NCBI GenBank assembly: GCA_964418085.1
Contig: CAYQKB010000001.1
Coordinates: forward strand, 1-49,695
Direction of reading: 5' to 3'
Source of the DNA: an uncultured Candidatus Saccharibacteria bacterium
GTDB taxonomy: Bacteria; Patescibacteriota; Minisyncoccia; UBA6257; 2-01-FULL-56-20
DNA length: 49,695 nt
The first letter of the stretch is position 1; each line of letters begins with the position of its first letter. Shown here in pieces: positions 4,144 to 29,249 of the stretch. The notes under the pieces are model-generated. The model did no database searches and was not told the DNA's origin. It saw nothing but the letters and a program-made list of their open reading frames with translations. The position numbers and the translations under genes are program-made.

Positions 4144-4650
4144 TTACCAAACTATCGTCCCTTCACTGTTTATAGAAAGAGTTGAGGTCTTATTGTTTTG
4201 CCCAATGGTTCCTGACCAAACCGGAGTAGAAGTTCCCGAAAGCTGCGTGAATACAATTCCCGCCGCCGGCAATGACGGAGTAAACGTTACTCCGCTTCCC
4301 GCGGGAGTAAGCTCTTTAATCGCGAGCGGACTGATACAACTAGTTCCCTCAAAAATAACATACGTATTGGTCACGGTATAAAAACAAAATCCATGCATAG
4401 ATTGATCAATATTATTCATTGATTCACTACGGGCTTTCTGAAGTAGAGCCACCACTATATCGCGCTCTGAACGAAAATATGTGCCACGAAACGTATCGAG
4501 CGTCATAAAAAGCCCGAGGCTTGAGATAAGGATAAAAATTCCCGCGACAACCAATATCTCAATCATAGTAAAAGCCGACTGATATGGAAAACGATTACGG
4601 ATGTAAATGTTGGGTAATTTCATAAATAGGGGTAATGATAGAAACGGCAA
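4144..4650 (-). CDS. Prepilin-type N-terminal domain protein (minor pilin); start uncertain (4650 or 4623)
   Basis: QSAFTMIEILVVAGIFILISSLGLF is a pilin-like N-terminal helix. The ORF overlaps the pilC 3' end, so an internal start at M10 is possible. Confidence 0.7.
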   Translation of the reverse strand: MPFLSLPLFMKLPNIYIRNRFPYQSAFTMIEILVVAGIFILISSLGLFMTLDTFRGTYFRSERDIVVALLQKARSESMNNIDQSMHGFCFYTVTNTYVIFEGTSCISPLAIKELTPAGSGVTFTPSLPAAGIVFTQLSGTSTPVWSGTIGQNNKTSTLSINSEGTIVW

Positions 4651-5683
4651 TAAACCCGACGATAGCGCCCATAAAAATCATAAGTATGGGTTCGATTGAA
4701 GTAGATAGATTTTTGGTGATCATATCCACTTCGCTTTCGTACATCTCGGAAACAAAGTAGAGGGTTTCGCTCAAATTCCCCGTGGTCTCCCCCACCGAAA
4801 CCATTTGAGACACCATCGGAGGAAAAAGATTGGGCTTTGAGTCCAAGTGGGTAGAGATCCTTCCTCCCTTCTTGAGACTTTCAGAGATTGAATGGATTTC
4901 CCGCCGGTATACAACAGTGTTCATGGTGTCCGCGGTAATCGTCGTCGCCTGCACAATCACAATCTGGCTCTTCAAAAGCAATCCCAACGTACGGCAAAAA
5001 TTTGCCATGTGATAGCTCTGCGACAATCTCCCGAAAATCGGAACCTTGAAAACAAAATGTTCAAAAGCAAACTTAATATTGTCACTCTTCGAAAGAAGCA
5101 CGGCTACAACCACAACTCCGACCAATCCAAGTAATAGAAGGAAGCCGTAGTGAATAAAAACACCACTCACAAAAATCAAAATCTTCGTCGTGATTGGCAG
5201 GTCGAACTTAAAGCTCGCAAAAATCGGCAGGATCTTGGGAAAAATAAATACGGTAAGCATAACGCTGATGACAATAGTGCCAAGAACTATAATCGCGGGG
5301 TATACCATGGCGCTCACAACCTTCCGCCTCAAGGCCTGCTTTTTTTCAAGCTCATCCGCCAAATAATTCAAATTTTCCTGGAGCGTACCGCTCATTTCTC
5401 CGACGCGGATGATATGCACTGCCAAATCACCGAAAATCTTGTGAAACTGCCCGAGACTCGTCGAAAGAAACTGGCCATTCTCCACATCCTCGACAACCTG
5501 CTCGAATATTTTCTTTGCGCTCGGTGAGGTTGATTGTTTTTTGAGAATTCGCAAACACTCCAAAATGGGCACGCCGGCCTTAACAAGAATGGAAAGCCGC
5601 TTTGCGAACAAAATTTTTTCCTGATTTGTAAGACGGAAAAATAATGCACCGAAGGAAGGTTTTTTCAAAGCGGGCTTATTCAT
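4595..5683 (-). CDS. pilC: Type IV pilus platform protein PilC (GspF family)
   Basis: Polytopic membrane protein with the duplicated GspF-type architecture. The start was moved to MNKPALKK (5683), whose ATG overlaps the pilB stop (ATGAATAA). Confidence 0.88.
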   Translation of the reverse strand: MNKPALKKPSFGALFFRLTNQEKILFAKRLSILVKAGVPILECLRILKKQSTSPSAKKIFEQVVEDVENGQFLSTSLGQFHKIFGDLAVHIIRVGEMSGTLQENLNYLADELEKKQALRRKVVSAMVYPAIIVLGTIVISVMLTVFIFPKILPIFASFKFDLPITTKILIFVSGVFIHYGFLLLLGLVGVVVVAVLLSKSDNIKFAFEHFVFKVPIFGRLSQSYHMANFCRTLGLLLKSQIVIVQATTITADTMNTVVYRREIHSISESLKKGGRISTHLDSKPNLFPPMVSQMVSVGETTGNLSETLYFVSEMYESEVDMITKNLSTSIEPILMIFMGAIVGFIAVSIITPIYEITQHLHP

Positions 5684-8377: not shown

Positions 8378-9832
8378 CTATAACGTGCTGGGCGGACTGC
8401 CATCTTCTGCACGTTCAACGTATTCGATGTTTTCGGCCTTCTTGGCATTTTCCGGCGTAATGACCCTTGTCCGTCGTCTATCACGCAAATAGCCCAAGAG
8501 AACAAAAAGCAAAATAAGAAGAAGAAGTAACGGCCATATCCATCCCCACGGAATAACCGAGAAAGCGAAAGCCAAACCGCCGACCGGCTCCGTAGATGAA
8601 GAGCTTGTCGCGTTTGTCAGTATTGCAAGAGATGAGAGAGTGCCGGATGCATTCTTCGTCCCCGTTGCATTCCGCAGAGAACCCGGAAGCTCGGCGAGGT
8701 TTCTTTCGGTGCTCGAAGGAACTCCTCCCAAACCGCCTTCAAATTTATGGACGGTTCCCGACGGCGCGCCCTGATTCCGCAGCAATTCTAATAAGTTCTT
8801 TCCGTTCTGCACTACGAGCTGTTGAGCCGGGGTAAGCGGAAACTGTCTTCCGCAGAAAATCTCGTTTATTTTCTTTACCGTTGTGATATACACATATCCT
8901 GTCGGCTCGGTAAGTCCCCATGGATCAAGTATGTCCGCCTTATATCTTTCCTGAAACGCCTTTACCGCTTCGAATGTTGCGGCATCGTACACTCCAGTTA
9001 TCTGAACATTCTCAAATCCTTCAATATAACGCAGAAACCCTTGAAGCTTATCTACTTCAACAGGATCGTTCTGCTCGCCAAAGCGGATATATTTACGAAT
9101 ATAAGTGACGCATTCAGTCGGAACTGTAATTGTTCCGCCACCAGAACCAGAAGATGGGACTATCGGCGCAGTCGGAGTTGAAGAAGTCGGGAATGTTCCG
9201 GTACCGCCGCCCACAGTTACAACTGTCGGATTGCCTGAACCGCCACCTCCTCCTCCGCCTCCCCCGTTTACTCCTCCGCCGTTATTTCCATTTCCTCCCG
9301 GTGTCGTTGATGTCGGCTGAACAGACACGCCGCCGTCTCCTCCATTTGAAGATCCACCGGTCACCGTGCTCGAAGCCGTAGATGTCGGAGTAGAAGATAT
9401 GCCATCCCCTCCGTTCGATGAGCCGCCGGACACGGTTGATGTCGCGGTAGATGTCGAAACAGAAATGGAAGAATCATCTCCATTCGAAGAACCTCCGGTC
9501 ACCGTGCTTGTAGGCACAGTTGCCGTAGTGCTCGTCGGGAAAACAATTGCATCATCACCATTCATGGATCCTCCAGTCACGGAACCCCCCGGGAAAGTCG
9601 AACTCGGGGTCGAAGTTGAAACCACAGTCGTGCCATCGTCTCCGTTCGTGGATCCGCAGCTAATCGGTGAACTCGAACTTTCGCGAGAAATCACCGCCGT
9701 GCCATCGTCTCCACTCGAGGAATCGCCATGCACACTCGCTAAGGCAACCGTTTGAGAACGGAAAAATAAGGTTAACACAATCAGCAAAATCAAAACTATC
9801 GTATTATGACAATAATTCCGGAATAATTTCAT
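8378..9832 (-). CDS. Secreted Ser/Thr/Gly-rich repeat protein with peptidoglycan-binding-like domain and C-terminal membrane anchor
   Basis: The start was moved to MKLFRNY..IVLILLIVLTLFF, which is signal-like. It has tandem GGSSNGDD-type repeats, a poly-G tract, LQGFLRYIEGFENVQITGVYDAATFEAVKAFQERY (PG_binding_1-like), and a C-terminal WPLLLLLILLFVLLGYLRDRRR anchor. Confidence 0.75.
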   Translation of the reverse strand: MKLFRNYCHNTIVLILLIVLTLFFRSQTVALASVHGDSSSGDDGTAVISRESSSSPISCGSTNGDDGTTVVSTSTPSSTFPGGSVTGGSMNGDDAIVFPTSTTATVPTSTVTGGSSNGDDSSISVSTSTATSTVSGGSSNGGDGISSTPTSTASSTVTGGSSNGGDGGVSVQPTSTTPGGNGNNGGGVNGGGGGGGGGSGNPTVVTVGGGTGTFPTSSTPTAPIVPSSGSGGGTITVPTECVTYIRKYIRFGEQNDPVEVDKLQGFLRYIEGFENVQITGVYDAATFEAVKAFQERYKADILDPWGLTEPTGYVYITTVKKINEIFCGRQFPLTPAQQLVVQNGKNLLELLRNQGAPSGTVHKFEGGLGGVPSSTERNLAELPGSLRNATGTKNASGTLSSLAILTNATSSSSTEPVGGLAFAFSVIPWGWIWPLLLLLILLFVLLGYLRDRRRTRVITPENAKKAENIEYVERAEDGSPPSTL

Positions 9833-9844
9833 ATACAAGTGAGT

Positions 9845-10017
9845 AGACCCCATCTCAAAAGTAGGCCTGCGATTGTCGCGAGGGATTTTCGAGATGAAAA
9901 CAAGGATATTCCGACAAAGGATACGGTCGTATCCTGCGAAGGAAATCGTTGTTTTCAGCCGAAAATAACCGTGAGAACCGCGGTTCTTCATTGATACCTA
10001 CTTGTGAGATGGGGTCT
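9845..10017 (+). ncRNA. Candidate structured RNA / foldback element 1 (about 173 nt)
   Basis: AGACCCCATCTCAAAAGTAGG at the 5' end pairs with CCTACTTGTGAGATGGGGTCT at the 3' end. Inner helices are GCGATTGTCGCG/CGTGAGAACCGC, ATTTTCGAGATGAAAACAA/TTGTTTTCAGCCGAAAAT and GGATAC/GTATCC. It is homologous to element 3. Strand was inferred from G-U pairs only. Confidence 0.4.
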
Positions 10018-10046
10018 GGATAAATTTTTTCGACCATTTCCAGGAA

Positions 10047-10076
10047 TTGTCAAAGATCTGTCAAAGCAATCATAAT
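10047..10076 (+). promoter_or_regulatory. Candidate sigma70-like promoter directly upstream of RNA-like element 2
   Basis: TTGTCA (10047-10052), an 18-nt spacer, then CATAAT (10071-10076). Element 2 begins about 19 nt downstream. Confidence 0.35.
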
Positions 10077-10094
10077 CATCAATGCAGAGATATT

Positions 10095-10366
10095 AGACCC
10101 CACTTGCAAAATCCCTTCTAGCCGCGTTCTTAGCGATTTTTTCGTATCCGCAAGGCTTCGATGAGGAAGTTGTGCTGAAGCACTACGCCCGAGTCGAAAC
10201 GAAGCGGGACGAGAAAATCGCAAGAACCCTTCGGGATACGCTAAGTTTGTGCTGTCGCTGCGTCGCTTCGGGACTCGGAGTACGTAAAGCACACCTTCGC
10301 CCTTGCTCCTTGCGACATCAAAAATTTAGCAGTATCGCGGCCGAAGGTATTTTGTAAGTGGGGTCT
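10095..10366 (+). ncRNA. Candidate structured RNA / foldback element 2 (about 272 nt, rod-like)
   Basis: AGACCCCACTTGCAAAAT pairs with ATTTTGTAAGTGGGGTCT, including one G-T pair that works only on the plus strand. Further nested pairings are CCTTC/GAAGG, GCCGCG/CGCGGC, GCAAGG/CCTTGC and CCGAGTC/GACTCGG. Confidence 0.4.
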
Positions 10367-10414
10367 TGATTTTTAAAGAGCGGCTTATCCTACCACAAAA
10401 ACCTTTATAGTCCA

Positions 10415-10620
10415 GAACCCATCTCAAAAGTAGGCCAGCGGTTGTCGCGAGATATTTTCGAGAATAAAAACGACGATGTTCCGACCCGCCTCGACTCGAC
10501 GTCTTCGGCGAGGCGGGCAAGGAATACTGAGGTATTCCGCGAAGGAAATCGTTGTTTTCAGCCGAAAATAACCGCGAGAACCGAGGCTCTTCGTCAATAA
10601 CCTACTTTTGAGATGGGTTC
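10415..10620 (+). ncRNA. Candidate structured RNA / foldback element 3 (about 206 nt), homologue of element 1
   Basis: GAACCCATCTCAAAAGTAGG pairs with CCTACTTTTGAGATGGGTTC. The closing stem differs from element 1 by a compensated change (GACCCC/GGGGTC versus GAACCC/GGGTTC). It shares GCGAAGGAAATCGTTGTTTTCAGCCGAAAATAACCG with element 1 and has an extra hairpin CCCGCCTCG...CGAGGCGGG. Confidence 0.4.
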
Positions 10621-13779: not shown

Positions 13780-14664
13780 CTACGTATGGACCGCGGAGAA
13801 AACTGCACGGACATCTTTCTTTTTTAGGATAACGTCATCAAGTGCAATAAGTATCGGGAATCTCTTTGCTTCGCCCTTAAGCATTGAAAGCACCGACGGA
13901 AGTGACACGGTGCCTTCCCCCATCGGCGCCACGCCCTCTTTAATCAAACGTTCCCCTACGCCACGATTCCGCGAGTGCGGGGAAAATCCGGTCGCAACCA
14001 AATCGCCAAGGCCGGCGCAGCTATATGCCGCCTGGCCGTCCCCGCCGAGCGTCTTTATTATTTCAGCCATTTCGGAAAGTGCCTGCCCGACATACCAGCC
14101 CTTAAAATTTGAGCCGAGCTCAAGCGCATCCACGATTCCGAGGCCGACCGCGTAAATATTTTTAAGCACTCCGGCGAGAGCCACGCTTCGAATGTCAGAT
14201 GAATGCTCGAGAACAAGATTGGTATTCGAAAAAAGATTCTTAACTTCGGAAATTGCTGCCTTATCAAGCGACGTGCACACACCCCTGCCGGATAAGCTGT
14301 TAGCCAGTTCTTCGGCAAGCATCGGCCCGCTTACAAGCACGTTTGGGTGGTGGGGCAAAAGTTCGGTAAAAATTTCGTCCGCGCGCTTCAGGGTTTTGCC
14401 TTCAATCCCTTTCGCGAAAAAAATCAGTATCGCATTGTCCCGTAAATACGGTTTCAGATCTTTTATGGCGTCGCGCACTCTCCACGACGGAACGCACAAA
14501 AATATAACGTCTGCCTTCGACACGGTTTCGGAAAGCGGTTTTTGATTCGGCACTTTCGAAACATCAACGTCAAAAAACTCGGTTCGTACATTTTTCTTCT
14601 CCAAAATACTCCCTAGTGCCGCCCCAATTCTCCCGGCACCGATAATTAAAACAGTGTTGTTCAT
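13780..14664 (-). CDS. gpsA: NAD(P)H-dependent glycerol-3-phosphate dehydrogenase
   Basis: N-terminal Rossmann motif VLIIGAGRIGAALG and the C-terminal GpsA-type motif AGLGDLVATGFSPHSRNRGVGERL. Confidence 0.8.
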   Translation of the reverse strand: MNNTVLIIGAGRIGAALGSILEKKNVRTEFFDVDVSKVPNQKPLSETVSKADVIFLCVPSWRVRDAIKDLKPYLRDNAILIFFAKGIEGKTLKRADEIFTELLPHHPNVLVSGPMLAEELANSLSGRGVCTSLDKAAISEVKNLFSNTNLVLEHSSDIRSVALAGVLKNIYAVGLGIVDALELGSNFKGWYVGQALSEMAEIIKTLGGDGQAAYSCAGLGDLVATGFSPHSRNRGVGERLIKEGVAPMGEGTVSLPSVLSMLKGEAKRFPILIALDDVILKKKDVRAVFSAVHT

Positions 14665-14768
14665 CCCGTTAGAAAATTAAAAACAGCGCTTTGCGACCGC
14701 TAAGGCGATTAGTGTTAGAATCGATTGTTTGATATTGATACGTTGTGATTGTTAATTTTCTAACGGGA
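14664..14768 (-). mobile_element. 105-nt MITE-like element, copy A, abutting the gpsA start codon
   Basis: Terminal inverted repeats TCCCGTTAGAAAATTAA (17 bp), flanked on both sides by TTCA (TGAA on the gene strand) at 14660-14663 and 14769-14772. Its reverse complement aligns along its whole length with copy B. The last element base supplies the A of the gpsA ATG. Confidence 0.6.
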
Positions 14769-14780
14769 TTCATGCTCTTG

Positions 14781-14872: not shown

Positions 14873-15349
14873 CTAGTTCCCGCTCGTCTTCAAAAATCCG
14901 GCAATCGCCTTCACCACCTGGGAATCCGGCTTCAGGTTTTCCCAAAACATGATTTTATCCTTCGGAATATACATCGTGTCCTGCGGGCCATGGAGTTCGC
15001 CGCCAAGCTTCACGAGGTTAAATCCCGATCCCGGCGCCGTCGCTCCCTGTTGAAGCTGTTCGGCAACCTGCAAATAGAAAATATTTGAAAGCGTCACGTA
15101 ATCCCTGCTGTGGTTCGCGAGATGTCCAAAATAAACCTGGTTATTGGTTAGAAACACCGACTGCCACTCCGATCCGGAAACCGCCGGGAAATCCCCGCCG
15201 GAAAGAATACTCCAGGCGACAACCACGATAGCCGCTATAATGAGTATGCCCACAATGTTCCATCCCCGCCCACCGCCGCGCTTCGGCGCAACCGACTCTG
15301 GCGCAACATGCGCCGAAGTCTCAAAAGCTACATTTGTTTTTCCAGCCAT
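14873..15349 (-). CDS. Hypothetical membrane-anchored protein
   Basis: A 158-aa ORF with one TM helix (WNIVGILIIAAIVVVAWSIL) and a soluble C-terminal domain. Confidence 0.55.
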   Translation of the reverse strand: MAGKTNVAFETSAHVAPESVAPKRGGGRGWNIVGILIIAAIVVVAWSILSGGDFPAVSGSEWQSVFLTNNQVYFGHLANHSRDYVTLSNIFYLQVAEQLQQGATAPGSGFNLVKLGGELHGPQDTMYIPKDKIMFWENLKPDSQVVKAIAGFLKTSGN

Positions 15350-16171: not shown

Positions 16172-16225
16172 CTACCTCCCCAAGTTGTAGAGCATCTGCA
16201 CTTCGCGGGGAGAGAGGACGCGGTT
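16172..16225 (-). pseudogene. Orphan (displaced) LamG 3' end: NRVLSPREVQMLYNLGR-stop
   Basis: The minus strand reads AAC CGC GTC CTC TCT CCC CGC GAA GTG CAG ATG CTC TAC AAC TTG GGG AGG TAG. It begins immediately after the GIY-YIG stop codon, in the same frame. Confidence 0.55.
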
Positions 16226-16486
16226 TTACCCTGTGAAAAACGATTTGAGTCTTCGACGCAAAGTAATTTTTCCACGAAAAGTTTTTAATGATTTTTCACG
16301 CCGGCGGGCATCCTCTTCATTAAGACACGCTTCATAATAAATAAGTGTTAATGGTCTGCGACTTTTCGTGGAAATTACTTTGCCTTTTTGATGTTGCTCA
16401 AATCGTTCGCGCAAATTATTCGTAGAGCCAGTGTATAGCTGACCATCTTTCAGACTTTTTAAAACGTAGGTATAAAAGAATGGCAT
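16226..16486 (-). CDS. GIY-YIG nuclease family protein (86 aa)
   Basis: FYTYVLKSLKDGQLYTGSTNNLRERFEQH..., the GIY..YIG/YTG motif followed by the conserved R and E, matching stand-alone small GIY-YIG proteins. Confidence 0.8.
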   Translation of the reverse strand: MPFFYTYVLKSLKDGQLYTGSTNNLRERFEQHQKGKVISTKSRRPLTLIYYEACLNEEDARRREKSLKTFRGKITLRRRLKSFFTG

Positions 16487-16570
16487 AAAAATTTGCGCGA
16501 TTTCACAGGGTGTCCCCTGTGAAATAGCCGTCGCGGCTAAAATTTTTTGGAAAAATTTTTTTCACAGGGT
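16228..16570 (-). mobile_element. About 343-nt mini-element carrying the GIY-YIG gene, with 13-nt terminal inverted repeats
   Basis: ACCCTGTGAAAAA at 16228-16240 and TTTTTCACAGGGT at 16558-16570 are reverse complements. An internal copy forms the hairpin TCACAGGGTGTCCCCTGTGA at 16502-16522. It is inserted between a RIY-coding remnant and an NRVLS-coding remnant. Confidence 0.55.
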
Positions 16571-16589: not shown

Positions 16590-18839
16590 TCACCGCCCAA
16601 GGTTGTATAACATTTGAACTTCCCTAGCGCTCAAAGCTCTATTGTAAATGCGGACGTCGTCGAGGGAGCCGGGGAAGAAGTTGCTGCCACTTAGAGAAAA
16701 TTTCTGTACAAGTGCGCCAATCGAGGTTGTATTCAGAGTTGTAGTAGCGGCCGTGTAGCTGAAATTTGTCGCGTCTAAGGATCCATCAATATATAATTTC
16801 CCTGCTCCCTGATTATCCATCCAGACGATATGGTGCCATCTGTTATCAAAAACATTACCGGTTGAACCAGTATTGAGTTCTATAACACCAGCATCGGACT
16901 CAATAGAAATTCGAATATTTTTACTTGGAGCAACTCCTGTGCGGATAGCGAATTGCGAAACTGCGTTCGAGGTATTACCTTCACAAAAGATGCATTCCGC
17001 CTGATTTATTGTTAGTCCTTTGACCCAGAATGTAACGCTGTAGGGAGTTGTGGTGCTGTAAATGGGCAAATTGTTGTTATAAGTAACACCAACATAATCA
17101 TTCACCCCATCAAACCTGAACCCCTGCCCAATCTTCCCAGCAACCGAAACCGTCGAAGAAGTCATATTCGTCATCGTCCCTGTGTTTCTGTTCCCGCTCA
17201 TGTCGAAGGTCTGCCCTGTCGCCCAGTTCGTATTCTGTCCGTCAAATGTCCAGTAGCCGACGAGGCCGGAGGTTAGGGACATGACAGGAGAATTATTTAT
17301 CTTTGCCTGGCCGAGCTGGTAGAGCATCTGCACTTCGCGGGGAGACAAGGCGCGGTTGTAGACGCGGACGTCGTCAATAAGACCATTGAAAAATGCTGCG
17401 CCTTGGAATGTTCCTATGGTAATTGTCTGATTGGAAACTAGTGTCCCTGTTCCCGTTGACGCACCATCAGATGCGCCATTTAGATAACAATTGATTGTCC
17501 AGGCGGAACTAGAACCCGTACGGACAACAACAACATGATACCAAGCATTAATTTTTAATGTAGTATTACAAGTGACTATCATCGCAGCACTTCCTCCTGC
17601 GTGTACGTAGCCAACTTTTCCAGCAGTTCGATTCATTTCCAAGTCCCATTGTGCATTTCCTGCCCCATTACCATTTCCAATGATAACAGCGTTACCTGCG
17701 GCGACAGTTTTAGTATTAATCCAAGCGGAAATTGTTAAATCTCCAGTCAAACTAAGACTAGCCGGCGAGCCAATATTGACTCTATAATTCACCCCGTCAA
17801 ACTTGAACGCCTGCCCAATCTTGCCGGGCACGGGCACAGTCGAAGAAGTCATATTCGTCATCGTCCCGGTGTTTCTGTTCCCGCTCATGTCGAACGTCTG
17901 CCCTGTCGCCCAGTTCGTATTCTGTCCGTCGAAGGTCCAGTAGCCGACAAGGCCGGAGGCAAGACTTACAACCGGCGAGTTGTTGAATTTTGCCTGGCTG
18001 AGTTGGTAGAGAGTTTGGATTTCGCGGGGAGATAAAACGCGGTTGTAAATGCGGACGTCATCAATGAGACCCTTAAAATATTGAGCATTAAACGCTCCGG
18101 GCCTCCCAATCGCAGATACTTGAGTTGCAGGCAAATTTGGAGTTGCAGATAATGTAGTCAATACTGATGATTTCAAAACACCGTTAACATAAAAAGAAGG
18201 AGAGCTGGTCCCTACTTGAGTCACTACGAGATGTGTCCACACATTTGCAGTCAAAACAACTGCGCTTGTATCATATCGCACATAACCCGTCGATCCTCCA
18301 GTCCATAACGTAAGCTTCCCTGCCGTATTATCAAATTCTCTAAATTGGGTCGCCCCCGAATCTTCCATACCATAAATTGTCTGCGTAACTGCAGTGGATA
18401 GGATTTTAATCCACGCACTATAGGAAATATTAGAAGAGTTTAAAGAAGCCACAGATCCAAGATTTACCCTATCATCTACTCCGTCAAACTTGAACGCTTG
18501 TCCCATCTTGCCGGGCGCGGGCACAGTGGAAGAAGTCATATTCGTCATCGTCCCCGTATTTCCATTCCCGCTCATGTCGAAGGTCTGCCCGGTTGCCCAG
18601 TTGGTGTTCTGTCCGTCGAAGGTCCAGTAGCCCACGAGGCCGGATCGAAGCGTCATGGTGGGAGAGTTGTTGACCACTGCGGACGCGTGGGCTTGGAAAA
18701 CACAGAGTATTGTCATTCCCGCGAAAGCGGGAATCCAGGTTAATAGAAGAATCTTTTTGGATCCCCGCTTCCGCGAGGATGACAAAAAAGATCTTATCCA
18801 CAAAACAATGCCTGACTTTTTTTTGGTGTTTATTAGCAT
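16590..18839 (-). CDS. Secreted protein with four LamG / concanavalin-A-like lectin modules (start uncertain)
   Basis: Three 230-aa modules begin NNSP..SGLVGYWTFDGQNTNWATGQTFDMSGN.NTGTMTNMTSST and each ends LIDDVR(I/V)YNR.LSPRE(I/V)Q.LYQL. A fourth, divergent module ends LDDVRIYNRALSAREVQMLYNLGR. The N-terminus is signal-like (ILLLTWIPAFAGMTILCVFQAHASA). Confidence 0.8.
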   Translation of the reverse strand: MLINTKKKSGIVLWIRSFLSSSRKRGSKKILLLTWIPAFAGMTILCVFQAHASAVVNNSPTMTLRSGLVGYWTFDGQNTNWATGQTFDMSGNGNTGTMTNMTSSTVPAPGKMGQAFKFDGVDDRVNLGSVASLNSSNISYSAWIKILSTAVTQTIYGMEDSGATQFREFDNTAGKLTLWTGGSTGYVRYDTSAVVLTANVWTHLVVTQVGTSSPSFYVNGVLKSSVLTTLSATPNLPATQVSAIGRPGAFNAQYFKGLIDDVRIYNRVLSPREIQTLYQLSQAKFNNSPVVSLASGLVGYWTFDGQNTNWATGQTFDMSGNRNTGTMTNMTSSTVPVPGKIGQAFKFDGVNYRVNIGSPASLSLTGDLTISAWINTKTVAAGNAVIIGNGNGAGNAQWDLEMNRTAGKVGYVHAGGSAAMIVTCNTTLKINAWYHVVVVRTGSSSAWTINCYLNGASDGASTGTGTLVSNQTITIGTFQGAAFFNGLIDDVRVYNRALSPREVQMLYQLGQAKINNSPVMSLTSGLVGYWTFDGQNTNWATGQTFDMSGNRNTGTMTNMTSSTVSVAGKIGQGFRFDGVNDYVGVTYNNNLPIYSTTTPYSVTFWVKGLTINQAECIFCEGNTSNAVSQFAIRTGVAPSKNIRISIESDAGVIELNTGSTGNVFDNRWHHIVWMDNQGAGKLYIDGSLDATNFSYTAATTTLNTTSIGALVQKFSLSGSNFFPGSLDDVRIYNRALSAREVQMLYNLGR
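16593..18671 (-). repeat. Three tandem 690-nt coding modules (18671-17982, 17981-17292, 17291-16593)
   Basis: The first 200 or so nt of each module and the last 90 or so nt of modules 1 and 2 are near-identical at the DNA level, while the interiors diverge; the tail of module 3 is conserved in protein but more divergent in DNA. The differences seen are mostly synonymous. Confidence 0.7.
18711..18784. repeat. Composite palindromic (REP-like) element, copy 2, inside the 5' end of the LamG ORF
   Basis: TGTCATTCCCGCGAAAGCGGGAATCCAGG...TTGGATCCCCGCTTCCGCGAGGATGACA. Its translations give the familiar repeat-derived peptides IPAFAGMT and SRKRGS (gene frame) or LDSRFRGND (another frame). Confidence 0.6.
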
Positions 18840-27427: not shown

Positions 27428-27700
27428 ATGGCGACCTACAAAGCCGAATACGTAAAAAAAATCAAAAAACGCGCTACCGAATCGAAAGTATATAAAAAAT
27501 ATCAGCTCATCGGCCTTGAAATCGCAAAGATTTTGGAAGACGAAAGCCATAAATCGCTCTACATAAAACTCGCAAAACAGGGAGACACGGAAAATCTCCT
27601 CCGGCAGGCAAAAGAAGTCAGCGAAAGGCGGAATGTAAAAAACAAAGGCGCATACTTCATGTCCGTCATATATAGCTCAAAACCAGATACAAAAGCATGA
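27428..27700 (+). CDS. Hypothetical small basic protein
   Basis: A 90-aa ORF. Its TGA stop is the left TGAA flank of MITE-like copy B. Confidence 0.45.
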   Translation: MATYKAEYVKKIKKRATESKVYKKYQLIGLEIAKILEDESHKSLYIKLAKQGDTENLLRQAKEVSERRNVKNKGAYFMSVIYSSKPDTKA

Positions 27701-27701
27701 A

Positions 27702-27806
27702 TCCCGTTAGAAAATTAAAAGTCATGATGGATAAACATCAGACAATCAATTTCAAAAATAATCGCTTTAGTAATTACAAAATGCTAGTTTTAATTTTCTA
27801 ACGGGA
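27702..27806 (+). mobile_element. 105-nt MITE-like element, copy B, abutting the def start codon
   Basis: 19-bp perfect terminal inverted repeats TCCCGTTAGAAAATTAAAA, with TGAA on both flanks (27698-27701 and 27807-27810). The last base of the element is the A of the def ATG. Confidence 0.6.
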
Positions 27807-28333
27807 TGAACGACGCCATAGTCACGGTCGGAACAAAAGCGGACGAAAAGTTTTTGAGAAAAAAAACGGCTGCGTTTGACTTCAAAAAATTCTCGAAAAA
27901 GGAAATTGCCGAGCTCATTGCAAAAATGAAGCGGATGATGCGCGCGGCGAAGGGCATTGGGCTTTCGGCAAACCAGATTGGGCTCAAACTCAAGTGCTTC
28001 GTCGCGGAGGTTCCAAACCAGCAGGGAGAGATGAAATTCTACGCAGTATTCAATCCCCGTATTGAAAAATCGGCAGGAGAAAAATTACTTCTCGAAGAAG
28101 GATGCTTGAGCGTGCCGGGAAAATATGGGCATGTCGAACGCTTCGAAAAAGTTAATCTTTCGGGATACGACAAAAACGAGAAACCGATAAAAATAAAAGC
28201 GTGGGGGCTTTTGGCGCACGTCTTTCAGCACGAGGTAGACCATTTGAACGGAATCATTTTTACCGACAAAGCAAAAGACGTTCACGACACGCCAAAAGAA
28301 GAACGTCTCGCGGAGAAAGAGGAGAATAAATAG
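27806..28333 (+). CDS. def: Peptide deformylase
   Basis: All three PDF motifs are present: GIGLSANQIG, EGCLSVPG and HEVDHLNG. Confidence 0.9.
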   Translation: MNDAIVTVGTKADEKFLRKKTAAFDFKKFSKKEIAELIAKMKRMMRAAKGIGLSANQIGLKLKCFVAEVPNQQGEMKFYAVFNPRIEKSAGEKLLLEEGCLSVPGKYGHVERFEKVNLSGYDKNEKPIKIKAWGLLAHVFQHEVDHLNGIIFTDKAKDVHDTPKEERLAEKEENK

Positions 28334-28403: not shown

Positions 28404-29249
28404 ATGAAATATATCTTCTTCGGTACTCCCAAATTTGCGGCAGCAGTCCTTGAAAAATTAATTGCCGCCGGCCTCCCGCCGGCTGCAGTCGTCTGCAATC
28501 CCGATAAACCCGTCGGAAGAAAAAAGGTGATCTCCGCGCCTCCCGTAAAAGAAATTGCCGAAAAACACGGCATCAAAATTCTGCAACCTGAAAAGTTGGA
28601 AGTTAATAGTTTGAAATTACAAGTCGGTGAAGTAGACTTCTTTGTTGTTGCCGCGTATTCTAAAATACTTAAAAAAGAAATTTTGAGCATCCCCCGTCTA
28701 GGAACAGTAGGTGTCCACCCCTCGCTTCTCCCAAAGCACCGCGGGGCATCTCCGATCCAATCGTCCATACTTGAGGGCGACACGGAAAGCGGAGTGACGC
28801 TCTTTTTAATTGACGAAAAAGTAGATCACGGGCAAATTATCGCAAACTTAAAACTGAAAACTGAAAACTTAAAACTGAATTATCTGGAACTTCAAAAAAA
28901 ACTTGCGGAGGTAAGCGGCGATCTTCTTGCCGAAACCCTGCCAAAATTTCTCTCTGGGAAAATAACCCCAAAAGAACAAAACGAAGCGGAAGCAACATAT
29001 ACGAAAAAATTTTCAACCGAAGACGCCTATGTCGAACCAAGCGACCTCGAAAAAGCGCAAAGCGGCGCCAATCCCATAATCGCCGAATCTATAGATAGAA
29101 AAATCCGCGCTTTGAACCCGGAGCCCGGCGTCTGGACAATCCACGACGGCGAGCGCTTAAAACTTCTCGAATCGGAAACGAAAAACGGAGCCCTCCATAT
29201 TCGGAAATTTCAACGAGCAGGGAAAAAACCGCAGTCCGGTATTCTGTAA
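28404..29249 (+). CDS. fmt: Methionyl-tRNA formyltransferase
   Basis: N-terminus IFFGTPKFAAAVLEKL and HPSLLPKHRGASPIQSSILEGDTESGVTLF (formyltransferase core). Classic def-fmt gene order. Confidence 0.9.
   Translation: MKYIFFGTPKFAAAVLEKLIAAGLPPAAVVCNPDKPVGRKKVISAPPVKEIAEKHGIKILQPEKLEVNSLKLQVGEVDFFVVAAYSKILKKEILSIPRLGTVGVHPSLLPKHRGASPIQSSILEGDTESGVTLFLIDEKVDHGQIIANLKLKTENLKLNYLELQKKLAEVSGDLLAETLPKFLSGKITPKEQNEAEATYTKKFSTEDAYVEPSDLEKAQSGANPIIAESIDRKIRALNPEPGVWTIHDGERLKLLESETKNGALHIRKFQRAGKKPQSGIL

Follow-up and report, generated by a model that had tools for sequence, protein, structure and literature searches.

Analysis of a 49,695-nt stretch of DNA from an uncultured Candidatus Saccharibacteria bacterium (contig CAYQKB010000001.1, positions 1 to 49,695; hereafter, the window) shows that the start codon of def, the essential peptide deformylase gene, is occupied by a 105-nt non-autonomous element flanked by a duplication of TGAA. 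This element belongs to a large and apparently undescribed family that is widespread in Patescibacteria (Paceibacteria/Parcubacteria), that is, in ultra-small CPR bacteria. The explanation that we consider probable as a whole is that of a MITE-like non-autonomous element that inserts into start codons, couples translation of the downstream gene to that of a short ORF and has relatives encoding a GIY-YIG nuclease. In the literature that we searched, we found neither a description of the element family nor any MITE from CPR bacteria.

The def copy, which scores 85.1 bits with the covariance model of the family, and the surrounding genes are organized as follows:

27428-27700, plus strand: upstream 90-aa ORF with a stop (TGA, 27698-27700) that shares bases with the ancestral def start codon
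27697-27699, plus strand: left (ancestral) copy of the def start codon, which now opens the short ORF of the element
27697-27801, plus strand: short ORF of 34 codons, MNPVRKLKVMMDKHQTINFKNNRFSNYKMLVLIF, with the stop TAA at 27799-27801, 4 nt before the def ATG
27698-27701, plus strand: left target-site duplication, TGAA
27702-27806, plus strand: 105-nt non-autonomous element with the ends TCCCGTTAG...CTAACGGGA
27702-27720, plus strand: left terminal inverted repeat, TCCCGTTAGAAAATTAAAA
27724-27726, plus strand: internal ATG (element position 23), where the nuclease ORF of the GIY-YIG cassettes begins
27788-27806, plus strand: right terminal inverted repeat, the last A of which is the A of the def ATG
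27807-27810, plus strand: right target-site duplication, TGAA, equal to bases 2-5 of def
27806-28333, plus strand: def (peptide deformylase; PF01327 in homologues), with the start codon rebuilt by the insertion
28404-29249, plus strand: fmt (methionyl-tRNA formyltransferase), downstream of def in the same operon; Formyl_trans_N/C domains in the syntenic genes of relatives

The two arms of the element are perfectly complementary over 19 nt, or 20 nt if the flanking A and T are counted, and the right terminus contains stops in all three frames. The def ATG consists of the last A of the element and the TG of the right TGAA, and excision of the element along with one TGAA yields GCATGAACGAC, with an ATGA stop/start overlap of the kind present in relatives. 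The original prediction, made from this stretch alone, held in each of these respects: it described a 105-nt element with perfect 19-nt inverted termini between two TGAA copies, the left one containing the stop of the 90-aa ORF and the right one completing, together with the final A of the element, the start of def, such that removal restores the overlap. The 90-aa ORF has no Pfam match; in relatives, its position is taken by a 95-138-aa ORF with an ATGA overlap with def. The 17-mer terminus occurs exactly four times in the window, compared with an average of 0.29 matches at up to 3 mismatches in shuffled sequences, so the termini in the window are not due to chance. In the scenario that we propose, the element would have entered between the A and the TGAA of the def start site, duplicating TGAA; since the element ends in A, this terminal A and the duplicated TG would have remade the def ATG.

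A second copy, which scores 85.8 bits with the covariance model, is located at the start of gpsA:

13780-14664, minus strand: gpsA (glycerol-3-phosphate dehydrogenase; Pfam domains), with the ATG at 14664-14662 formed by the element end and the duplication
14660-14663, minus strand: right TGAA duplication (TTCA on the plus strand)
14664-14768, minus strand: second element copy, at the gpsA start codon, in the same orientation relative to the gene as the def copy
14669-14773, minus strand: short ORF, MNPVRKLTITTYQYQTIDSNTNRLSGRKALFLIF, with the stop 4 nt before the gpsA ATG
14687-14707, minus strand: internal hairpin with a GGTCG loop, CGCCTTAGCGGTCGCAAAGCG, the conserved interior motif of the family
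14769-14772, minus strand: left TGAA duplication (TTCA on the plus strand)

The two copies are 79% identical over the 125-nt repeat that includes the flanks and 66% identical over the interiors alone; the GGTCG-loop hairpin is degenerate in the def copy. The existence of a second copy of the same length at gpsA, with TGAA on both sides and ending on the ATG, was correctly anticipated, with the nuance that the left TGAA at gpsA does not serve as the stop of a genuine gene; the gene upstream ends at 14873.

The terminal 18-mer, the one exact arm by which the family members were collected, is present at more than 112 loci in ~50 genomes, nearly all of them Patescibacteria MAGs. The elements are 101-112 nt long, and 90 of the 100 examined terminate precisely on an ATG from which an ORF of 50 codons or more runs; among the others are rpmJ and ORFs truncated at the end of a locus. 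Of 99 elements, 67 have the same 4 bp on both sides (TGAA in 55, TGGA in 10, TGTA in one and TTTA in one), and TGAG/TGAG flanks were present in an earlier count. Matching flanks that co-vary in this manner (TGAA, TGGA, TGAG, TGTA) indicate a real target duplication; the only bases common to the insertion sites are A-TG-R-A. The targets are diverse housekeeping genes, namely ssb, topA, rpmJ, polA, rplB, rplX, rplR, gyrA and secY in addition to def and gpsA, and some start codons have been struck repeatedly in independent events: the duplication at def is TGAA in the window and TGGA in locus L106, with the relatives of the window empty, and that at ssb is TGAA in some genomes but TGTA in another. 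The orientation of the interior agrees with that of the gene in all 24 elements outside the training set whose scores differ by 10 bits or more. Solo termini represent a subfamily with a one-base bulge, CTAAACGGGAT. A related family has TCAA/TCAA flanks 2 nt upstream of an ATG. No element copy was found in viral contigs, no Rfam 15 family matched at the gathering score (the best hit, at 26.6 bits against a threshold of 51, is unrelated), and promoter and terminator scans of the elements yielded no consensus and nothing above shuffle expectation. The idea that promoters or open complexes are targeted was dropped because many targets are internal to the ribosomal-protein operon.

In the neighborhoods of Def homologues with 73-77% identity, the order S41 peptidase, small ORF, def, fmt is kept, with the ATGA overlap and without the element; GpsA homologues with 71-73% identity lack the element as well, and one with 78% identity (L119) has an ambiguous upstream remnant resembling a terminal inverted repeat. 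In genome CAYZZK01, the def site is empty (L115) and the family is present elsewhere (L059). Empty sites were thus found in relatives at both def and gpsA; the exact predicted empty def site was sought in metagenomes and not found, and no within-population polymorphism was seen. Under a different reading, the segment would be an ancestral, non-mobile leader, regulatory RNA or small-protein gene of def and gpsA, which would agree with its co-transcription by position, its stable predicted fold (-35.1 kcal/mol, z = -6.9) and the ORF inside it. The empty sites already contradict this reading and, taken together with the occurrence of the element before unrelated genes, the co-varying duplications, the variable peptide with a C-terminus read in three different frames and the lack of a matching Rfam family, leave it extremely improbable. 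A gene-specific leader peptide or attenuator also fails as a candidate, given the many unrelated target genes and the absence from close relatives.

There are also signs of recent activity. Within JAUSKT01 and within JACOXZ01, copies at unrelated loci are 94-96% identical, and two species whose 4-fold sites have reached saturation, at 31% identity, share an ssb element that is 98% identical. At least 23 copies are present in JAUSKT01 and 2 in the window. The original proposal that the element is mobile, duplicates 4 bp and is strongly associated with ATGAA starts is therefore borne out by ~100 copies, by the tabulated flanks and their co-variation, and by the empty sites and recent copies.

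In most genomes, the element interiors are old and diverged and the termini are intact, a combination that could reflect a function at the level of the host rather than pure selfishness. The element would then have been inserted but would now be retained as an RNase III site, a thermosensor, a translational throttle or an insulator in polycistronic mRNAs, which is compatible with our main explanation and accounts for the conserved termini and the interior hairpin. Indeed, across 93 copies sampled by a search that demanded one exact 18-mer arm, 1651 of 1780 stem positions are paired, against interior identities that drop to 50-65%; the topA pair combines a right arm conserved at 100% with an interior at 66%; the interior hairpin of the family shows a conserved GTCG loop and compensatory changes in the stem; and the terminal stem is in principle long enough for RNase III. 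However, the balance of sense-strand G-U against A-C mismatches in the stem (14 vs 7, or 10 vs 6 without position 1) is not significant and thus gives no sign of selection on the helix as an RNA structure as opposed to DNA termini. Furthermore, def and gpsA of close relatives manage without the element, the left arm is decayed in some old copies, and the scans described above revealed no promoter or terminator consensus. We regard retention for a host function as possible but on the unlikely side.

Turning to the consequences for def under the explanation that we favor, the predicted fold agrees with the initial description of a terminal helix that buries the start codon and, if formed, this helix might strongly influence def translation. 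The net effect, nevertheless, is likely to be translational coupling, not blockage. The original ATG, which still overlaps the upstream stop (ATGA), would now open the 34-codon ORF; ribosomes on this ORF would melt the 19-20-bp terminal stem that otherwise hides the def ATG, terminate at the TAA in the right terminus and proceed to def by termination-reinitiation. Such coupling would fit an organism that nearly lacks Shine-Dalgarno sites: GGAG or GAGG occurs within 20 nt upstream of the ATG in only 1 of 41 putative genes of the window, in line with the scarcity noted at the outset. In the family, the conserved short ORF of 34-36 codons starts at the duplicated left ATG and crosses the element; the predicted peptide is variable and 31-37 aa long. 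The interior is free of stops in this frame in 49 of the 60 elements that have a left ATG, with early stops in the other 11; the stop rate is 0.023 vs 0.055-0.097 in the five other frames, and 23 of 32 clusters keep this frame open, compared with 5-10 of 32 for the other frames (Fisher p = 1.4e-7). Relative to the gene ATG, the stops are located at -16/-15, -8/-7 or +1, with one ORF running on to +16, and an ATGA overlap is found at the right junction, too, in 12 of 60 MITEs and in most of the cassettes discussed below. Stops that lie close to or overlap the rebuilt ATG point to translational coupling. From these patterns, we infer that the short ORF is translated and that def is reached by reinitiation; the stop-free frame could in part be inherited from a coding ancestor instead of being selected.

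The 105-nt element encodes no nuclease and contains no gene for a mobility enzyme. Its protein-coding relatives are 277-280-nt cassettes, the first of which was found at positions 4329-4709 of locus L093, that encode only an 86-aa GIY-YIG nuclease (Pfam PF01541, E = 1e-15 to 1e-20); the nearest solved proteins are UPF0213 proteins and SLX1. Among 49 distinct metagenome cassettes, 28 have TGAA/TGAA flanks, 37 have the junction ATG, and in 20 the frame of the host ATG continues through to the TGA in the ATGA overlap. The 105-nt element and the cassettes agree in their outermost 11 nt, in the duplicated TGAA and in their placement on a start codon. Position 23 is, moreover, the most frequent place for an ATG in either group (37 of 91 MITEs, against 5 of 91 in the reverse-strand control, and 21 of 46 cassettes). 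The inner termini differ (GAAAATTAA in the MITE vs GAGATTAA or GAGACAA in the cassettes), local DNA alignments of MITE and cassette interiors did not exceed shuffled sequences in score, a profile of the cassette proteins did not separate MITE peptides from shuffled ones, and no cassette bearing the exact MITE terminus was found. The window itself contains one related gene:

16226-16486, minus strand: 86-aa GIY-YIG nuclease ORF with its own 11-nt inverted repeat (ACCCTGTGAAA / TTTCACAGGGT), a sister-family cassette

We consider this cassette as context, not as the proven mobilizer of the 105-nt element; no TCCCGTTAGAG-type cassette is present in the 49.7-kb window. Most likely, the 105-nt element is a derivative or hitch-hiker mobilized in trans by a cassette-type GIY-YIG nuclease; it is from sequence comparison that we infer both the role of the GIY-YIG protein as the mobility enzyme and the manner in which the 4-bp duplication is made.

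Inverted termini combined with a fixed-length duplication, both of which are present here, are a hallmark of DDE transposition. The element might accordingly be a classical MITE moved by the DDE-type transposase of an unsampled insertion sequence, its likeness to the cassettes being limited to a shared terminus and target, or the cassettes themselves being passengers. This would be consistent with the non-significant homology between MITE and cassette interiors, and no GIY-YIG nuclease is known to function as a transposase or to produce 4-bp duplications. Yet, neither a DDE transposase gene bounded by the termini (TCCCGTTAGA) nor a longer element with these ends was found in the ~0.8 Mb of loci chosen for carrying them or among the matches listed by a genome scan, and searches for a longer parent, using relaxed termini at 300-4000 nt spacing or long ORFs starting with MNPVRK, returned noise or composites only. 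Given, in addition, that the sole protein-coding elements found with these ends encode GIY-YIG and that the duplicated TGAA and the placement at start codons recur in dozens of cassettes, a DDE transposase appears unlikely. Spread by homing, whereby the nuclease cuts empty alleles and repair copies the element in, as with free-standing GIY-YIG homing endonuclease genes, would explain the choice of highly conserved housekeeping genes, the filling of the same genes in different species, the near identity of the ssb elements between species with diverged flanks, and a weak NCBIfam match of the cassette protein to group I intron endonucleases. Homing, however, leaves no target duplication, needs one long specific site and involves no inverted termini, whereas the present elements lie between duplicated, co-varying 4-bp flanks, have struck dozens of unrelated genes at sites that share A-TG-R-A only, and possess inverted termini, which are foreign to homing genes; this route is quite unlikely.

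Returning to mobilization by the cassette nuclease, a bolder interpretation, to which we give somewhat less than even credence, is that of a new class of prokaryotic mobile elements. The autonomous form would be the ~280-bp cassette, with inverted termini and an SLX1/UPF0213-like 86-aa GIY-YIG gene as its sole gene, and the 105-nt element the non-autonomous form. Such elements would insert between A and TGRA with a 4-bp duplication, borrow the host start codon and hence the promoter and initiation signals, and return the ribosomes via a stop adjoining or overlapping the rebuilt ATG. If so, they would do hardly any harm, even in the essential operons of streamlined CPR genomes without Shine-Dalgarno sites. 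The genomes of CPR/Patescibacteria are tiny, gene-dense and thought to be poor in transposons, and the family represents one route by which mobile elements can multiply in them, namely by landing on start codons such that the host gene stays translatable. It also offers a concrete sequence system for the study of translation start and restart in bacteria without Shine-Dalgarno sites and, possibly, a new transposition mechanism with a minimal GIY-YIG nuclease as the candidate mobility enzyme. In practical terms, gene finders will mishandle such starts and the associated 34-95-aa ORFs, and repeats that reach at least 23 copies in one MAG can break assemblies.

In its inverted termini, fixed-length duplication, small size and multiple copies with empty and filled sites, the element corresponds to a MITE; the GIY-YIG cassettes are candidates for the autonomous partner. 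It resembles the bacterial MITEs Correia/NEMIS of Neisseria, RUP of Streptococcus pneumoniae and Nezha of cyanobacteria in the size of ~100-150 nt, the terminal inverted repeats and short target duplication, the lack of a transposase gene, the many copies with empty and filled sites among relatives, and the transcript that would form a long hairpin (PMC3184786). Unlike these MITEs, it targets the start codon itself and rebuilds the ATG, carries a stop-free ORF that joins the old and new start codons, has coding relatives with a GIY-YIG nuclease in place of a DDE transposase, and resides in CPR bacteria. The REP2 repeats of Neisseria and the upstream repeats of Borrelia are located directly upstream of genes, provide the ATG and contain internal stem-loops (PMC3184786); the element described here similarly provides part of the ATG and has an internal stem-loop. 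REP2, however, contributes its own promoter and ribosome-binding site, and no inverted termini or duplications are described for it, whereas here there is no promoter or Shine-Dalgarno consensus and the ATG combines the A of the element with a duplicated TG. Rickettsia palindromic elements, too, are palindromic mobile repeats that are tolerated in translated regions by staying open (PMC3184786) but, being in frame, become part of the host protein; in the element analyzed here, the reading frame forms a short ORF of its own, ending just before the host ATG. The cassettes, in turn, are reminiscent of the phage T4 seg/mob GIY-YIG genes and of the GIY-YIG ORFs of non-intron insertions in CPR rRNA genes in that they are small, lie between or inside conserved genes and need host expression signals. 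In contrast to free-standing GIY-YIG homing genes, they possess inverted termini, 4-bp duplications and many unrelated targets, and encode nothing beyond the 86-aa catalytic domain, which is most similar to UPF0213/SLX1. Finally, as in translationally coupled overlapping genes, the ancestral ATGA overlap is retained at the left junction; the difference is that here the coupling unit travels on a mobile element and is placed between two coupled host cistrons.

The 105-nt inverted-repeat element on the start codon of def has the make-up described in the original prediction. Its termini form a perfect inverted repeat of 19 nt (20 nt counting the flanking A and T), TGAA stands on both sides, the left TGAA contains the stop codon of a 90-aa ORF, and the right TGAA, together with the last A of the element, opens def. 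The second copy, of the same length, is likewise present at gpsA.

27428-27700: 90-aa ORF upstream of the def copy; its stop is the left TGA
27698-27701 and 27807-27810: TGAA flanks of the def copy
27702-27806, plus strand: element, def copy, 105 nt, TCCCGTTAGAAAATTAAAA...TTTTAATTTTCTAACGGGA
27806-28333: def; ATG formed by the element's last A and the right TG
28404-29249: fmt, downstream of def
14664-14768, minus strand: element, gpsA copy, 105 nt, TGAA-flanked, ending on the gpsA ATG

The two copies face the same way with respect to their genes and are 79% identical over a 125-nt repeat that includes the flanks (66% for the interiors alone). The terminus occurs in the window far more often than expected by chance, and the element RNA is predicted to form a long hairpin (-35.1 kcal/mol, z = -6.9). 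Several further repeat families are found in the window (9340-9726, 9845-10620 and 17097-18768): coding repeats of 69 nt in tandem, 20-nt inverted repeats in pairs (AGACCCCATCTCAAAAGTAGG), and three repeats spaced 687 nt apart inside large genes.

To distinguish an insertion from an ancestral leader, we examined def homologues with 73-77% Def identity, located on their own contigs. All of these relatives retain the gene order S41 peptidase, small ORF, def, fmt, and none contains the 105-nt element (for example, ...AAAGCATGAATAGC... in L116; L-numbers denote comparison loci from other genomes or metagenomes). As predicted for an element-free site, the small ORF and def overlap by ATGA in most of the relatives, with an 8-nt overlap in one. 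The gpsA relatives at 71-73% GpsA identity also lack the element; in a 78% homologue (L119), the upstream region holds nothing more than a TIR-like remnant, itself ambiguous. The CAYZZK01 genome has an empty def site (L115), yet carries a family member elsewhere (L059). Empty sites are thus available at both genes, and we interpret the 105-nt segment as an insertion, not an ancestral leader. In one relative of the def locus, a 120-aa gene of the 23S_rRNA_IVP family (PF05635; L113 2077-2439) lies between def and fmt; neither the window nor the other def relatives have it, and it is one more small and probably selfish cassette at an operon junction.

The 18-mer ATCCCGTTAGAAAATTAA is present in more than 112 stretches among the matches listed from a one-genome-per-species collection, nearly all of them in Patescibacteria MAGs (Liptonbacteria, Sungiibacteria, Harrisonbacteria, Vogelbacteria, Giovannonibacteria and Paceibacterota among the matches listed), with a few chance matches in other phyla. 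An indel-tolerant census yielded at least 100 elements, mostly of 104-108 nt. Identical 4-bp flanks were detected in 67 of 99 elements and, when the right flank departs from TGAA, the left flank changes along with it (TGGA in 10 cases, TGTA in 1, and also TGAG); therefore, this is a real target duplication, in line with the predicted mobility. The reconstructed target is no more than A-TG-(A/G)-A. In 90 of 100 cases, the element ends exactly at an ATG with at least 50 open codons behind it; most of the remainder adjoin rpmJ (37 aa) or are truncated at a locus end. ATGAA starts about half of the genes in the window; given that the window contains 48 intergenic TGAA sites (13 of these ATGAA) compared to about 20 ATGAA starts, the 90-95% share of start codons exceeds what availability alone would provide. 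The anticipated preference, or selection, for ATGAA starts is thereby borne out, and may reflect either target choice or survival.

Full or mini copies also occur on contigs binned outside Patescibacteria (L025, L063 and L112, Omnitrophota; L109, Elusimicrobia; L029, "Gammaproteobacteria"), reflecting either mis-binning or transfer beyond the clade. Three elements (L013 477-580, L038 5808-5916 and L085 1858-1963) pair a TTCA flank with a TGAA flank, so that the flanks are inverted rather than direct, the expected product of inversion by recombination between oppositely oriented copies. Elsewhere, elements are arranged in tandem or nested at a single start codon (L058 1809-2727, L014 564-774, L049 4643-4884 and L093 4329-4709), consistent with every insertion recreating the A+TGAA target.

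The occupied genes have housekeeping roles and no relation to one another (ssb, topA, rpmJ, polA, rplB, rplX, rplR, gyrA, secY, def and gpsA), with internal genes of the ribosomal-protein operon among them. At the start of def, the flanks are TGAA in the window, whose relatives are empty, and TGGA in L106; at that of ssb, TGAA occurs in some genomes and TGTA in one other. Both start codons were struck independently more than once. In most genomes, the interiors are just 50-65% identical whereas the termini are intact; within two genomes, copies at unrelated loci share 94-96% identity. The ssb copies of two species are 98% identical despite saturation of the 4-fold sites of these species (31% identity), which points to recent and probably horizontal spread.

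A search for the 9-nt core in longer-spaced pairs revealed an element (L093 4329-4709) with termini ATCCCGTTAGAGATAAC / CCTATCTCTAACGGGAT, located at an ATGAA start, that contains an 86-aa ORF and has a 106-nt element nested within itself. This ORF encodes a GIY-YIG catalytic domain (PF01541, E = 7.5e-20); among solved proteins, UPF0213 proteins and SLX1 are the nearest to it, and homologues adjoin other elements. Scanning metagenomes with an alignment of five proteins, in which 80 loci were retained of 584 relatives, yielded 49 distinct TCCCGTTAGAG-type cassettes of 277-280 nt, with TGAA/TGAA flanks in 28 and a junction ATG followed by a long ORF in 37. In 20 of the 49, a reading frame that opens at a host-derived ATG continues in frame across the left terminus and the whole nuclease, closing with the TGA of the ATGA that overlaps the rebuilt start. 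The terminal 11 nt are common to the MITEs and the cassettes, as are the duplication and the target; the two sets also share an ATG at element position 23, with TTT directly behind it, and this position is the mode in each (reverse-strand control, 5/91). Families of 121-125 nt with exactly cassette-type termini are located between ATGA and GAA. Homology between MITE and cassette interiors was tested and is not significant, so that derivation from the cassettes is less secure than shared ends and target. The GIY-YIG protein is a candidate for the mobility enzyme of the element.

The window itself encodes a GIY-YIG homologue, with a 55-nt mini-derivative bearing the same 11-nt repeat directly upstream.

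16226-16486, minus strand: GIY-YIG ORF, 86 aa, flanked by its own, different 11-nt inverted repeat ACCCTGTGAAA / TTTCACAGGGT
16228-16238, 16501-16511 and 16515-16569: repeats of this cassette

This cassette is not located at a start codon and follows a gene ending in ...REVQMLYNLGR (stop), with a second copy of this gene end after it (repeat D2, 16179-16243). A GIY-YIG ORF in L058 is truncated and interrupted by another element. Other cassettes, with termini ACCCCGTTGGATTA / TAATCCTACGGGGT, are lodged within tyrosine-recombinase-like genes, in the stretch from the ...LLGH motif to the ...TTEIYTH motif (L188-L196 and L202, around position 700-960 of each); the cassette end, GGGGTGA, provides a GTG for a restart, and the host gene may be split yet still translated in two parts.

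In 60 elements, the left flank retains an ATG from which an ORF (MNPVRKL...), not noted in the original prediction, crosses the element, and the interior is free of stops in this frame in 49 of the 60. These ORFs end inside the right terminus, which has a stop codon in all three frames, or at an ATGA overlap (-16/-15, -8/-7 or +1 from the gene ATG); one continues to +16. After clustering of the interiors at 70% identity, the left-ATG frame was open in 23 of 32 clusters compared to 5-10 for the five other frames, with stop rates of 0.023 versus 0.055-0.097 (Fisher p = 1.4e-7). The peptide is unconserved, its C-terminus being read in differing frames, and it is the openness of the frame that is retained, not a protein. 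Inheritance from a coding ancestor could explain part of this openness. The interior has the orientation of the gene in every scorable element, and the simplest reading of the short ORF is translational coupling, a likely design of the family. Under the coupling model, ribosomes would initiate on the old ATG (which, at def, follows termination of the upstream ORF at the ATGA overlap), traverse the element while unwinding the stem, halt beside the rebuilt ATG and restart there.

Of the 41 putative genes of the window, just 1 has GGAG or GAGG ahead of its ATG; therefore, the earlier remark that Shine-Dalgarno motifs are rare holds. In many window genes (for example, 41379, 46255, 12351 and 31841), a TAnAAT box lies upstream of the ATG, its end about 7 nt away, and the same box is found at the reconstructed target sites of L005, L025, L062, L092, L097 and the window gpsA. 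Together with the Shine-Dalgarno count, these boxes suggest that leaderless or very-short-leader mRNAs are common in this organism.

About 12 nt ahead of the right terminus, many copies also share a 5-7-bp hairpin with an (A/T)GTCG(G/A) loop and stems that vary by copy (for example, GTCTTT/AAAGAC, TTGGTT/AACCAA, CCGATT/AATCGG and TCCTTT/AAAGGA). Fixed-register pairing is only moderately above slid controls (70% versus 44-63% of positions). The hairpin is present in the gpsA copy and degenerate in the def copy.

In general, the observation is real and its interpretation in the original prediction is supported, an influence on def-fmt expression being still a prediction; the wider implication is that elements residing on start codons form a widespread family in CPR bacteria. 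In the literature searched, we found neither the terminus sequence nor a link between MITEs and Patescibacteria. RPEs, for their part, are translated within host proteins. GIY-YIG ORFs are also on record from non-intron insertions in the rRNA genes of CPR bacteria; they were judged not to spread by homing, and termini and duplications of these insertions are not described in that work (PMC11270868). The Neisseria REP2 and Borrelia repeats resemble the element in donating an ATG, which they do via a promoter and ribosome-binding-site module (PMC3184786). The element is a MITE by every structural test, the identity of its mobilising enzyme aside; it differs from the Correia, RUP and Nezha-type MITEs in its start-codon target, its coupled short ORF, and its GIY-YIG-coding relatives.
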